Below are positions 35,580 to 39,343 of a DNA stretch of 64,000 bases, piece by piece (the stretch's first letter is position 1; every line of letters begins with the position of its first letter). Made by a program: the position numbers and the translations under genes. This DNA comes from Candidatus Micrarchaeota archaeon. GTDB taxonomy: Archaea; Micrarchaeota; Micrarchaeia; Micrarchaeales; CABMGC01. Under the pieces are notes generated by a model. That model had not been told where the DNA came from. It saw only the letters and a program-made list of their open reading frames with translations, and searched no databases. The stretch covers positions 636,068 through 700,067 of the forward strand of contig JAGWHD010000001.1 of NCBI GenBank assembly GCA_028866995.1, read 5' to 3'.

Positions 35580-35921
35580 ATGATTGGAAAGAAGCAGACT
35601 GCCTCAAAGATGGTCTCGATCGCAGACGTGCTGGACATACTCGAGGATAGGCAGAAGGACGGCGAGCTCGGGTACGAGCAGCAGATAGAGCTGGAGCATG
35701 CGAAGAAGTTCTCTAAGCTGGGCAAGAAGGAGGCGGAGAAGATGAAGGAGGAGCTGATGGAGAACGGCATGGGCGAGAAGACTGCCACAAAGACCGTAGA
35801 GATAATGCCGATAGACATCACGCAGCTGAAGCTGATACTTGTCATGGACAGGCTCACCCTTGACGACGAGGCCTGCAAGAAGCTGATGGGCATAGTCGAG
35901 AGCCACAGGGGAAAGCAATAA
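35580..35921 (+). CDS. rpoF: DNA-directed RNA polymerase subunit F (Rpo4)
   Basis: 113 aa. VLDILEDRQKDGELGYEQQIELEHAKKFSKL...TATKTVEIMP resembles Rpo4/RpoF. Followed by a DUF655 gene, as is typical in archaea. Confidence 0.7.
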   Translation: MIGKKQTASKMVSIADVLDILEDRQKDGELGYEQQIELEHAKKFSKLGKKEAEKMKEELMENGMGEKTATKTVEIMPIDITQLKLILVMDRLTLDDEACKKLMGIVESHRGKQ

Positions 35922-35939
35922 GGCTTCATTTGGGAGAGC

Positions 35940-36521
35940 ATGGAGGAGACGGAACAGAGGAGAGAGGGTCTTGAGGAATACGCAATAGTGCTAGACTATC
36001 TGCCTACTGGCAGGTCATCGTCCATCAAATCGGAGCCGCTGGTGCAGCTGCTTGGGGAGCAGAGGTTCACGCTCCTCGAAGCGGTAGCGAAGGACGGCGA
36101 CATCAAGACAGCAGAGAGGGTTTACATAGGAAAGGGGGACAGGGACAAGATATCGCTGATAAAAGGCAGGCTCTCGTACAGCGAGCTGACTGAAGGCGCA
36201 AAGAACGAGCTGATGCCTGCGATCTACAAGATAATCAAGGGCAACGAGAAGCATTTCGTCGAGATGTTCAACACCGCTTCGCCGCTCAACATAAGGATGC
36301 ACTCATTGGAGCTGCTTCCTGGGATAGGCAAGAAGCACCTCACCGCGATACTCGACGCTAGGGAGGACAAGCCCTTCGAGAGCTTCGAGGACATAACTAA
36401 GAGGGTGCCGCTGCTGCAGGATCCTGTAAAGCTGCTCGCAGAGAGGGTGGTCATGGAGCTGAAGGGCGACAGCAGGTTCTACATACTTACGAGGCCCTCT
36501 TTCCATCACGAAGGCTACTGA
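35940..36521 (+). CDS. DUF655-family nucleic-acid-binding protein (OB-like plus HhH)
   Basis: EEYAIVLDYLPTGR...RFTLLEAV...LELLPGIGKKHLTAILDAREDKPFESFEDI. Confidence 0.65.
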   Translation: MEETEQRREGLEEYAIVLDYLPTGRSSSIKSEPLVQLLGEQRFTLLEAVAKDGDIKTAERVYIGKGDRDKISLIKGRLSYSELTEGAKNELMPAIYKIIKGNEKHFVEMFNTASPLNIRMHSLELLPGIGKKHLTAILDAREDKPFESFEDITKRVPLLQDPVKLLAERVVMELKGDSRFYILTRPSFHHEGY

Positions 36522-36529
36522 ACTGTTTT

Positions 36530-37945
36530 TCAGATCGTCGCGAGCCCCAATATTGACCATCTGTTAGAGACCGTAGTCTGTACCACTCCAAGGGTATTGG
36601 CAACCTCGCGCTGCGTCCTGTACCCTACCTCTTGGTCGATGTACCTTGCATGCGCATCCTTGTAGTCTTCGTCGGCAAGCTCCTTCCGGGGCTTGCGGAC
36701 TTTCTTCTCCACAAGGCCTAGTTTCCTGACTCTTGCGGACATCGCACCCTGCGTCAGGCCCACCCTATTGCCCATCTCAGCCTGAGTGCCTCCAAGCCTG
36801 AACGCCGCTATTATCTCGTCGTCGCTCACCCCGCCGTTGGATAAGGGCACCTCCAGTTCCAACTCCCCGGCTCTCTTGCGGTAGACTTGATGGCTGATGC
36901 CGATCTCTTTCCTCGCCTGCGGCGCCGTCAAGCCCCTCGAAATTGCATCGGTTATCTGCTCGTCGCTGTATGCCTTTCTCCTATTCGGCATGAGTTCCAG
37001 CTTTCTCATCCTCGAATATACTGCCCATCTGCTCATCCTGTACTCAGAGGCTATCTCCTCCGGCATCTTTCCGGCCTCATGCGCTGCAATGAGCTGTTCA
37101 TTCGTGATCTTTTGGAAACGTCCCTTGGCAATCCTGTGCGCTGCCTGACGCTTCTCCGGCCTGTTCGGCTCCAGTTCCAGCCTGTTTAGCAGCACACGTA
37201 CCCAGTTCTGGCCTATGCCAAACAATGCAGCCATCTCCGATACGGTCTTTCCTTCGCGCTGCGCAGTTATGAGTTGCTCGTCAGTTACCTTTCTTCTCCC
37301 AGCTCTTTTTCCTTTGCGTTCGGATTCATGTGCTGGTCCATTCCTCGCAGGTCTGTTGGGCTGGAGCCCCATCTTCCTGAGTCTAGGGTAGAATGTGTTG
37401 GGATGCAGGTTGCATTCTGCAGCCATCTCAGCTACAGTCTTGCCGTCCGCATGCATCTCCCTTATCTTCTGTTCGCTGACCTTTCCGTTGCCGGCCGGAG
37501 AACCACCGTTTCTCCGTCTGAGATAGCTCCTCTCGAACTCCTCGTCGCTTAGGCGCTGCGCTTCTCTAATTGCAGCCGCTTCAGCTTCCCTGCCGTGCTC
37601 TACTACAACGTCCGGATACCTCTTTGCAAGCATCTCCTTGTACGCGCTGTTGCCTATGTCAAGCGCGGGCCTGACGCCGTTCGCTGTCACGTTCAACGTG
37701 CTCAGCATTAGCTTCTTCTCGACCTCGACTCTCCTGCACTCGAACAGCGCCTGCAGCTCCTTCGGGAGCTTGCTGTAGTTCGCGGGCTCGCTGATGCTTC
37801 CGAATTCCCCCTCCACTCTTCTCAAAAGCTCGAAATAGGGCCTGCTCCTGTCGAGGAGCCTGTGTACCTTCTCCTCACCGCCCTTGCCCCCGAACATTGA
37901 CTGGGCGCTGTTAGGGCTCGTCCTATAAGCATCAGAACCTGCCAT
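36530..37945 (-). CDS. Protein with six tandem helix-turn-helix modules after a ~155-aa N-terminal domain of unknown function
   Basis: Five repeats of (V/I)(S/T)(D/E)EQ(I/L)...G(K)T..E(M/I)A...(HTH)...L.L.PNR, plus a sixth variant RTQREVANTLGVVQTTVSNRWSILGL. Confidence 0.6.
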   Translation of the reverse strand: MAGSDAYRTSPNSAQSMFGGKGGEEKVHRLLDRSRPYFELLRRVEGEFGSISEPANYSKLPKELQALFECRRVEVEKKLMLSTLNVTANGVRPALDIGNSAYKEMLAKRYPDVVVEHGREAEAAAIREAQRLSDEEFERSYLRRRNGGSPAGNGKVSEQKIREMHADGKTVAEMAAECNLHPNTFYPRLRKMGLQPNRPARNGPAHESERKGKRAGRRKVTDEQLITAQREGKTVSEMAALFGIGQNWVRVLLNRLELEPNRPEKRQAAHRIAKGRFQKITNEQLIAAHEAGKMPEEIASEYRMSRWAVYSRMRKLELMPNRRKAYSDEQITDAISRGLTAPQARKEIGISHQVYRKRAGELELEVPLSNGGVSDDEIIAAFRLGGTQAEMGNRVGLTQGAMSARVRKLGLVEKKVRKPRKELADEDYKDAHARYIDQEVGYRTQREVANTLGVVQTTVSNRWSILGLATI

Positions 37946-37996: not shown

Positions 37997-38284
37997 TCAG
38001 GCGCTGTCAAGATGCATCTGCGGCACTATGAGCTTTCTGATGGTCGACTTGCTCGTGTGTATCTCAACGACATAAGCATCGCCCCTCTTCTCTATGACCG
38101 TTCCCACCCTGCCCCTGTACCTCGGGTGCGGTATGTTGTTGAAGTTGCCCTTAGGCGCTATCAGTACCTTCGCGCCTATGCTGAAGTTCTTAAGGAGCTT
38201 GCTTATGCCTAGCCTTGATGGCGGATTGTGCCTTGCTAGTTGCCTTGTCCTTCCTACGAAGAGACCGTGCGACCTTCCAGTCAT
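37997..38284 (-). CDS. rpl21e: Ribosomal protein L21e
   Basis: MTGRSHGLFVGRTRQL...PHPRYRGRVGTVIEKRGDAYVVEI is typical of L21e. Confidence 0.9.
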   Translation of the reverse strand: MTGRSHGLFVGRTRQLARHNPPSRLGISKLLKNFSIGAKVLIAPKGNFNNIPHPRYRGRVGTVIEKRGDAYVVEIHTSKSTIRKLIVPQMHLDSA

Positions 38285-38373
38285 GCTAATTACCTCTGAA
38301 CAGATTAGGAATATTTATACTTTGCTTTATAAACCTTTATAAACACTTGCTTTTCAATAGTAGTGTGAATCGC

Positions 38374-38700
38374 ATGGCGAAGAACGCTAAATCGGGTAAG
38401 AGGGTAGAACTCAAGCCTGTCTTCAAGATTGAGAACATCGTTGCAAGCGCAGACCTGGGGGTCGAGCTCGACCTTTACGGCATAGCAAAGGCGTCTCCAG
38501 ACGTCGACTACGAGCCCGAGCAGTTCCCTGGTGCCATATGCAAGATACACGATCCCAAGACCGCGTTGCTCCTGTTCAAGAACGGAAAGATAATCTGCAC
38601 TGGCGCGAAGACAGAGGCAGACATAAAGCGGGCTATAGACCAGGTCATAAAGATAGTCAGGAACTACATAATAGAGCACAAGGAGACCGAATCAAAGTAG
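38374..38700 (+). CDS. Single-repeat (half-size) TATA-box binding protein homolog, 108 aa
   Basis: IENIVASADLGVELDLYGIAKASPDVDYEPEQFPGAICKIHDPKTALLLFKNGKIICTGAKTEADIKRAI equals one TBP repeat. The ORF stops after KETESK and is flanked by minus-strand genes. Confidence 0.7.
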   Translation: MAKNAKSGKRVELKPVFKIENIVASADLGVELDLYGIAKASPDVDYEPEQFPGAICKIHDPKTALLLFKNGKIICTGAKTEADIKRAIDQVIKIVRNYIIEHKETESK

Positions 38701-38713
38701 CTCCTCTAATCCT

Positions 38714-39343
38714 TCATCCTTTTCTGATGTGCCTTGCCGCAAGCGAGTATACCACATAAAGGGCTATCAGGAACAGCGCAATGGCGACAATGCTTATCGT
38801 CAGGCTTCCTGTGGATAGCGCGTAGTACCCGAACGCCATGAGCGCTATCTCCCAGATGAAAGCGCCAATCATCGAATATGCGATGAACTTGCCCAGCGGC
38901 ATCTCCGCGAACCCTGCGGGGAAATTGATGAGCCCCCTCACTCCTGGGAGCAGCCTGGACACGAAGACCGCGAACGGGCCGTTCCTCAAGAACCACCTGT
39001 CGAAGGCCTCTATGCTCTCCCTCTTTATGCTGAACAGGCCGAGGTGCTTGTAGACGACCTCCTTCCCTATGTAATAGGCTATCGTGTAGTCTATGAGATA
39101 GCCGGTGAGGCTCGCGAGAAGCACGTCTGCAGCTGCAAGGTAAGGGTTCAATTGCCCGGTGTACACGAAGTGCCCGACAGCAGGCAGCACCACCTCGCTC
39201 GGTATGGGGAACGATGCGGACTCAAGCGTCATGAGTACGAATATGCCTACGTAGCCGTATTGCGATATGATGGAGTTGATGGCGCCGGCTGCGCCGCTGA
39301 GTATCTGGAAGCCTGTCTGCAGAATCAGCATCTCGAGAAGCAT
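38714..39343 (-). CDS. dedA: DedA/SNARE-associated family membrane protein
   Basis: YVGIFVLMTLESASFPIPSEVVLP motif, 4-5 TM, 209 aa. Confidence 0.8.
   Translation of the reverse strand: MLLEMLILQTGFQILSGAAGAINSIISQYGYVGIFVLMTLESASFPIPSEVVLPAVGHFVYTGQLNPYLAAADVLLASLTGYLIDYTIAYYIGKEVVYKHLGLFSIKRESIEAFDRWFLRNGPFAVFVSRLLPGVRGLINFPAGFAEMPLGKFIAYSMIGAFIWEIALMAFGYYALSTGSLTISIVAIALFLIALYVVYSLAARHIRKG

Follow-up and report, generated by a model that had tools for sequence, protein, structure and literature searches.

The TATA-binding protein (TBP) provides the textbook example of a pseudo-symmetric protein, which is thought to have descended from a homodimer by gene duplication and fusion. To our knowledge, TBP is two-lobed in all other archaea and in eukaryotes, and we know of no organism that has been shown to run its general transcription on a TBP of one lobe. 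Here we describe a gene for a TBP with only one lobe from a Candidatus Micrarchaeota archaeon (contig JAGWHD010000001.1, positions 636,068 to 700,067; this whole stretch of 64,000 nucleotides is called the window in the following, and all coordinates refer to it). We consider it fairly probable that this gene encodes the general TBP of the lineage, which would have been reduced from two lobes to one, would have arisen at the same locus and would act as a homodimer.

Canonical archaeal TBPs like that of Pyrococcus woesei (PDB 1PCZ/1AIS) carry the domain PF00352 twice in one chain. The window protein shares with them the fold of the lobe (1.3-1.7 Å), the DNA-kinking phenylalanine pair, the central asparagine and valine and the glutamates that contact transcription factor B (TFB). 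However, it has one lobe per chain instead of two, so that a saddle would have to be assembled from two chains, with exact symmetry. Brindefalk et al. 2013 (PMC3597702) reported monopartite TBP-domain proteins of two kinds, both existing beside full-length TBPs. TbpA, encoded on pNRC100 of Halobacterium NRC-1, is like the window protein a single lobe derived from a bona fide TBP (PMC3597702). It closely resembles the TBPs resident in its host and arose recently as a paralogue on a plasmid, alongside five two-lobed TBPs (PMC2121645, PMC3597702), whereas the window gene belongs to an old, diversified and widespread family which occupies the canonical TBP locus; in the loci searched no further TBP was found beside it. 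The monopartite proteins of the Thermococcales (~91-97 aa, P. furiosus NP_578195) resemble the window protein as stand-alone proteins of ~100 aa, but they are barely TBP-like, form a separate cluster, give short local alignments and occur alongside a normal TBP (PMC3597702); the window protein, in contrast, has a canonical lobe with E=2e-45 to TBPs in the PDB. The closest sequences to the window lobe are the two-lobed TBPs of Micrarchaeota (P0002, P0001 and P0106; P numbers stand for proteins and L numbers for loci of this analysis), which are found at the same locus and are 61-68% identical per lobe. They are quasi-symmetric 'covalent homodimers' with linked lobes, of which the window protein has only a linker-like N-terminal arm. 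In surveys of DPANN archaea TBP was scored simply as present (PMC8407392), and no published one-lobe TBP of Micrarchaeota or DPANN was found in the literature, of which subscription journals were thinly covered.

The gene (38374-38700, plus strand) extends from an ATG to a TAG and encodes 108 aa. The product consists of a basic N-terminal tail (MAKNAKSGKRVELKPV; 38374-38421, plus strand), the TBP lobe proper (residues 17-98, S1-H1-S2-S3-S4-S5-H2 according to Pfam and an AlphaFold2 (AF2) model; 38422-38667, plus strand) and a C-terminal tail past helix H2 (38668-38697, plus strand), the length and sequence of which differ between orthologues. Pfam finds a single PF00352 domain at residues 17-98, which spans model positions 2-85 of 85 and reaches 103.8 bits at a gathering cut-off of 22.9. 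The two tandem lobes that define a TBP are thus replaced by one, with no second lobe in any downstream frame, and the same applies to the orthologues. Also a tblastn search of the 64-kb window with two-lobed TBP queries gave no second TBP-like sequence, even at E<=10. The gene is divergent from the gene of ribosomal protein L21e (37997-38284, minus strand), by which this locus is consistently anchored in Micrarchaeota, and convergent with that of a DedA/VTT membrane protein (38714-39343, minus strand), which is the conserved downstream neighbour in family A1 (the group names A1, for the window type, A2 and B are our own); 13 nt lie between the stop codons of TBP and DedA, which leaves neither space for nor a trace of a second lobe. 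In comparison with the PDB the protein matches the Pyrococcus woesei TBP 1pcz, residues 8-104 aligning with the linker and the C-lobe. Both lobes of 1pcz score about equally (76.9 and 79.1 bits), and the window lobe is 43-48% identical to each Pyrococcus TBP lobe. The N-terminal tail matches the inter-lobe linker of two-lobed TBPs, the arm GKRVELKPVF aligning with that of Pyrococcus TBP; its end, (V/I)xLxPxF, is conserved among the orthologues and P15 is nearly invariant. An earlier note on this DNA, made from the letters alone, had already recognised a one-lobe TBP frame, its likeness to both halves of Pyrococcus TBP and its position between L21e and DedA on the minus strand without an adjacent second half, and all of this agrees with the domain search, the bit scores, the coordinates and the tblastn result. 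The note had furthermore counted 20 aa from a quoted peptide to the stop; the TAG is correct, but the distance is actually 13 residues (the protein ends with ...VIKIV, followed by RNYIIEHKETESK and the stop).

The AF2 model, calculated from 46 one-lobe sequences, has a predicted local distance difference test score (pLDDT) of 81, with 86-91 in the lobe, and superposes on archaeal and eukaryotic TBP lobes with 1.3-1.7 Å over ~81 residues (archaeal TBPs: 1.3 Å over 81 residues). A fold search yielded 44 matches at E<=0.001, all of them at <=1e-5 and every one a TBP; the next fold class were the N-domains of OGG1, with E~0.2 and template modelling (TM) scores of 0.3-0.4. A TBP domain of the RNase HIII or DNA glycosylase type was rejected because the fold matches that of true TBPs and the protein stands alone, without a fused catalytic domain. 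A placement with these non-TBP members of the superfamily, which the earlier note had named as a possible objection, is therefore not borne out.

Residue conservation was followed in 233 one-lobe sequences (55 of family A and 178 of family B). V23, E47, E49, F51, P52, G53, F68 and G71 are unchanged in 233/233, N21 is altered in one family-B sequence only, and T76 is kept in 229/233 (54/55 in family A, 175/178 in family B); the window protein itself has N21, V23, E47, E49, F51, F68 and T76. Accordingly, both the DNA-kinking phenylalanine pair F51/F68 with the central minor-groove residues N21/V23 and the TFB/TFIIB-contact glutamates E47 and E49 of the YEPEQF motif, as expected of a TBP, are present. 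F68 corresponds to the universally conserved L5.1 phenylalanine, and E47/E49 to C.L3.2/C.L3.4, the glutamates touching arginine and threonine of TFB/TFIIB (PMC7221094). As all kinking and contact residues are kept, the protein has everything that a TBP lobe needs for DNA kinking and in addition the adapter-binding signature of a C-lobe. An origin of the window lobe from either the N- or the C-lobe could not be told from identity, which is 61-68% to both lobes of the two-lobed Micrarchaeota TBPs.

A protein search revealed 17 clusters of one-lobe orthologues with 103-130 aa and 81-95% identity to the window protein, all of them from Micrarchaeota. P0006 was traced to 3 contigs and P0085 to at least 24, from assemblies of NCBI, ENA and Logan, and the order RpoF - DUF655 - L21e(-), TBP(+), DedA(-) is found in every contig of both. 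Over all independent assemblies of NCBI, ENA, Logan and JGI, the one-lobe gene together with its synteny is present on over 30 contigs, and a scan of species-representative genomes, comprising at least 80 loci, added the one-lobe loci L015-L020; L018 and L019 are Nanopore metagenome-assembled genomes (MAGs) with contigs of 243 and 659 kb. A search with the DUF655 protein of the window gave at least 120 matches; those listed are all close relatives of it with 68-100% identity, and several lie on contigs known to bear the A-type gene. The open reading frame (ORF) of the window TBP is intact and its MAK start is conserved. Between the lobes of the window and L001 the synonymous divergence (dS) is 0.77 and the non-synonymous divergence (dN) 0.005; dN/dS is 0.06-0.14 against other orthologues with unsaturated dS, and the overall range is 0.007-0.14. 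Hence, purifying selection on the one-lobe gene is very strong. In comparison to L004, the whole TBP ORF is 79% identical and the lobe of 82 aa alone 93%, whereas L21e reaches 67%, DUF655 77% and DedA 46%; the housekeeping genes next to it are less conserved than the window lobe. The gap between TBP and DedA measures 3-209 nt across the A1 loci (<65 nt everywhere except in L015), and no lobe-like ORF was found downstream of TBP in these loci.

Two-lobed TBPs occupy the same place in related lineages. P0002 and P0005 (182 aa), which are among the closest two-lobed TBPs, are divergent from an L21e-RpoF-DUF655(-KsgA) cluster, and in at least 16 loci of two-lobed Micrarchaeota TBPs in the genome scan L21e lies directly upstream on the opposite strand. 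One-lobe genes adjacent to L21e are found in the window and in L001-L009, L015-L023, L025, L033, L041, L048, L057 and L059. Since the window gene is divergent from L21e just like its two-lobed relatives, it is the positional orthologue of the ordinary two-lobed TBP. In the lineages A1 and A2 RpoF-DUF655 is inverted and lies on the strand opposite to L21e (35580-36521 in the window, compared with L010, L012, L024 and others), whereas L21e-RpoF-DUF655 is co-directional in other Micrarchaeota. This inversion is a possible synapomorphy of the A lineages and agrees with the grouping of A1 and A2 in the lobe tree.

The lobes of Micrarchaeota TBPs are unusually alike. In 104 two-lobed Micrarchaeota TBPs the identity between N- and C-lobe is 53-92%, compared with 43% in Pyrococcus, and YEPEQFPG is found in both lobes. 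The lobes of P0002 (L010 3577-4125) are 99% identical in DNA over 201 bp, and those of P0001 and P0106 are 89-92% identical in protein, which indicates concerted evolution or a very recent re-duplication. Neighbour joining of 199 lobe representatives puts the N and C lobes of the Micrarchaeota type and the one-lobe proteins into a single clade (169 units, bootstrap 84) that leaves out both lobe types of Thermoplasmata, Pyrococcus and others, a pattern expected from gene conversion or from repeated loss and re-duplication. A possible snapshot of lobe loss is L048 1034-1318 (CAZLIX010000034.1), a gene next to L21e that has a single lobe. Compared with P0030, its front half matches the N lobe and its back half the C lobe, each with 95% identity, and the junction falls inside 28 residues which are identical in both P0030 lobes. 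Judged by its sequence, this gene is the product expected of unequal inter-lobe recombination, or else of an assembly collapse of that single contig. The near-identical lobes of the relatives suggest inter-lobe recombination as the route of lobe loss. The lobe number can apparently also rise, as P0449, an archaeal TBP of 272 aa, has three lobes in the order N, N, C, the first two being almost identical. The four lobes of P0450 and P0535, both eukaryotic (plant-like) gene models, probably result from a fusion of tandem genes. Overall, these comparisons suggest that the lobe number is labile in Micrarchaeota. As the window lobe is nested in the Micrarchaeota lobe clade and the locus holds a two-lobed TBP in relatives, the gene is best read as a secondary reduction that re-created the postulated ancestral architecture and not as a relic.

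The one-lobe state is not restricted to the window type. Among the matches listed, six-frame hidden Markov model (HMM) searches found a one-lobe ORF in ~40 of 80 loci. Besides A1 and A2 there is a large and tight family B, which has a bootstrap of 100 in the lobe tree and the sequence pattern IKIQNIVVSADLHA...DYEPEQFPGAIFRI...IILFKNGK...SKYVI; a B-type protein query gave at least 269 proteins, nearly all of 90-144 aa. The locus of family B (L030, L035-L040, L042, L046, L049, L051-L054, L061, L073 and L094-L100) is also conserved, with the order nuo/mrp genes - GGR-like(-), TBP(+), GT4(-) - SRP54/SecY, and one family-B gene lies on the 940,636-bp contig JAKBSM010000001.1. Beyond A1, A2 and B, two smaller one-lobe groups, one of them in Iainarchaeota-labelled MAGs, and several singletons exist, and the identity among one-lobe relatives falls to ~47%. 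MAGs with the labels Nanobdellati, Iainarchaeum and Diapherotrites likewise contain one-lobe TBPs, at L043 9749-10249 (WALL01000027.1), L047 and L066; in L043 the open frame upstream of the lobe includes a long lysine/alanine repeat (AKKKAVKKKPAAKKK x3), possibly an N-terminal extension. L067 9941-10643 was rejected as a genuine half-TBP, as it is a two-lobed TBP which a frameshift or a gap in the assembly has split over two frames, the second lobe containing a masked N-run. The SRP54-like gene of the window was likewise dismissed as a marker of B-type synteny, because it is FtsY in a non-syntenic FtsY-prefoldin-eIF6-S19e cluster. GC content did not discriminate A-type from B-type loci, the ranges of which overlap.

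The window protein probably works as a symmetric pair, a form that so far has only been hypothesised. Two chains of 108 aa would pair via their S1 strands, while the basic N-terminal arm, in place of the inter-lobe linker, would pack on the partner, and the result would be a ten-stranded saddle with exact two-fold symmetry. Such a dimer could bind and kink TATA boxes by four phenylalanines, F51 and F68 of each subunit, and would expose two identical TFB-binding stirrups (E47/E49). In the review PMC7289017, which refers to Bell et al. 1999, the polarity of the archaeal preinitiation complex is attributed to the contact of TFB with the B recognition element (BRE) and not to the asymmetry of TBP. 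As the orientation of the archaeal TBP-TFB-DNA complex relies on TFB-BRE, the BRE would choose between the two equivalent TFB sites, and this contact alone would set the direction of transcription. A symmetric TBP appears to be tolerated in Micrarchaeota, going by lobes that are 53-92% identical and both carry YEPEQFPG. The one-lobe gene may have emerged from a two-lobed ancestor by recombination or slippage between near-identical lobes. The homodimer raised in the earlier note is thus the best-supported mechanism, given the positional orthology and the retained DNA- and TFB-contact residues; dimerisation itself, TATA and TFB binding and the absence of another TBP are inferences.

That the gene is an artefact or a pseudogene, i.e. 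a collapsed tandem repeat, a frameshift or a decaying gene, has hardly any probability left. A repeat collapse is plausible for single cases such as L048, and the PGAP annotation pipeline of NCBI has no protein record for the gene in the source MAG. But the architecture recurs in dozens of independent short-read and long-read assemblies, the ORF is intact and begins with the conserved MAK, dN/dS stays well under 1 despite a dS near saturation, and in the A1 loci no lobe-like ORF follows in the short space in front of DedA; the silence of PGAP may be accounted for by the NCBIfam cut-offs of 181-347 bits compared with 98 bits for one lobe. A frameshift or contig break hiding a second repeat, a reservation of the earlier note, is ruled out by the orthologues with the same architecture and synteny, and for family A the artefact is already refuted by the comparative data. 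Very improbable is also a primordial relic, a lineage which was never two-lobed and kept the state before the duplication. The common clade of the Micrarchaeota N and C lobes (bootstrap 84) would fit a one-lobe ancestor of the phylum with later re-duplications as well, but the window lobe, 43-48% identical to both Pyrococcus lobes, bears the TFB signature of a C-lobe, it nests among the Micrarchaeota lobes, the sister lineages are two-lobed at the same locus and two lobes are found in all other archaea and eukaryotes (PMC3597702). At most a one-lobe stage at the level of the phylum is conceivable, not a survivor predating the archaeal ancestor. The suggestion of the earlier note that the gene represents the ancestral state of TBP was consequently abandoned in favour of the secondary reduction.

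The weak point of our reading is whether the one-lobe gene is the sole TBP. Several points speak against a reduced, homodimeric general TBP. The search for a second TBP covered the window, the flanks of the loci and the contigs listed in the genome scan, so that a further TBP-lobe gene may exist elsewhere; the matches listed in the scan do not include, for example, the species carrying P0200; support for the deep nodes of the lobe tree is weak; AF2 on a head-to-tail fusion of two copies, run without an alignment, was uninformative with regard to dimerisation (pLDDT 37.5); and with family B a second one-lobe family, a potential partner subunit, exists in the same archaeal order. In addition, the 2-kb contig of L101 (1100-1483, ENA ERZ27236996 k141_903115; protein P0472) carries a sharp mosaic TBP with a B-type front and an A1-type back, between a B-type GGR-like gene upstream and an A-type DedA gene downstream. 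An accessory or regulatory half-TBP, which competes for TATA boxes or TFB or serves as a specialised factor like TbpA while a two-lobed TBP elsewhere does the general job, is unlikely; the earlier note had named an accessory protein beside a full-length TBP as its alternative. The literature offers a precedent for this reading only, since those monopartite TBP-domain proteins that are known occur together with full-length TBPs (PMC3597702), and the search for such a TBP covered the window and the loci. However, the gene is located at the canonical TBP position of at least 16 two-lobed lineages, where a displaced paralogue would be expected elsewhere, and its conservation exceeds that of the neighbouring ribosomal protein gene. 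The six-frame HMM search found no second TBP within +/-10 kb of any scanned locus, and a full-length TBP beside a window-type gene, in the manner of TbpA, was found neither in the 64-kb window nor in the loci nor among the scan matches listed. These 80 loci are on 80 different contigs of 80 different assemblies, and none of them is a two-lobed TBP from an A- or B-type assembly; P0002 and P0005 lie at L21e loci of their own and therefore stem from other lineages. As two-lobed Micrarchaeota TBPs score far inside the cut-off of the scan, a co-resident copy would appear if sampled.

Somewhat less probable still is a split TBP, in which the A-type gene at L21e and a second one-lobe gene elsewhere, for instance of B-type, provide the N and C lobes of a heterodimer. 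Two well-separated one-lobe families do occur in MAGs labelled Micrarchaeales or Micrarchaeaceae, the lobe tree joins them (39 tips, bootstrap 32), which duplication explains as well as speciation, the genome scan covers the matches listed, and an inversion between co-resident paralogues would yield a mosaic like L101. Yet the two types do not meet in one assembly among the matches listed (16 A-type and 20 B-type whole-genome shotgun prefixes), and the NCBI locus-tag prefixes recovered, for the fraction of proteins named, do not overlap either (4 for family A, 25 for family B). The MDE18xxxxx project holds both types, but none of the B-type accessions known lies within the block of protein accessions inferred for an A-type MAG, and the 659-kb A-type contig (L019) has one TBP locus only, and no B-type locus, among the matches listed. 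The same TFB-contact motif in both families argues against a division of labour. As to L101, its junction coincides with the YEPEQFPG codons, precisely where 23-29 nucleotides are the same in A and B genes, and there the GC content at third codon positions (GC3) jumps from 0.26-0.40 to 0.56-0.58. The contig is hence likelier an assembly chimera of two co-occurring organisms, a real recombinant between paralogues or between lineages being the less probable alternative, and as the GC3 jump fits such a chimera it was discarded as proof of co-resident paralogues. A reduced general TBP acting as a homodimer thus remains our preferred reading.

Besides L21e the window contains further members of the conserved L21e-RpoF-DUF655 cluster. 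These are a probable RpoF/Rpo4 (Rpb4-like) gene (35580-35921, plus strand), which has 21.2 bits to Pfam Rpb4, below the cut-off, and a homologue in L004 annotated as PF03874, and a DUF655 gene (35940-36521, plus strand), the product of which is 100% identical to NCBI MDE1851800.1 from a 726,952-bp contig. Between DUF655 and L21e a gene for a protein of 471 aa with about six tandem helix-turn-helix modules is inserted (36530-37945, minus strand); at this place L001 has a gene of 226 aa without Pfam hits, and L004 is empty. The divergent promoter region of L21e and TBP contains two palindromic TATA octamers (CTTTATAAAC x2, 38326-38343), for which a promoter role is assumed. The octamer TTTATAAA has just these two copies in 64 kb (0.19 expected), the second one ~31-38 nt upstream of the ATG of TBP, and the doublet TTTATAAA-NN-TTTATAAA also precedes TBP in L001, L019 and L012, the last of which is a two-lobed locus. 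It could serve the two divergent genes as a pair of TATA boxes, or TBP could regulate its own gene there. A/T-rich boxes at ~-30 to -40 from the start codons are common in the window.

One-lobe TBPs are easily overlooked by annotation. The best NCBIfam TBP model gives 97.6 bits for the window protein, which with half the length fails the cut-offs of 181-347 bits for an equivalog or subfamily, and even the two-lobed P0002 is below the cut-off (186 compared with 255). This explains the label 'hypothetical protein' given by PGAP. The products of the window TBP and L21e genes are absent from the protein and gene collections; the adjacent DUF655 protein is present in the protein collection, though an exact look-up in the gene-position index gave no match for it either. 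The cut-offs may also be behind the absence of the TBP. Annotation pipelines thus mislabel or skip one-lobe TBPs, and such genomes can appear to be without TBP.

We give a chance slightly better than even to the wider view that in a large part of the Micrarchaeales the sole TBP is a symmetric one-lobe homodimer, with polarity entirely dependent on TFB-BRE and a lobe number (one, two, occasionally three) that toggles by recombination between near-identical lobes. If true, nature would here offer a first example of the architecture that has for a long time been postulated for the TBP ancestor, and with it a natural, testable model of TBP before the fusion. It would also offer a clean system for studying how a fully symmetric TBP gives directional transcription, and it would mean that the fusion of the TBP lobes is reversible.

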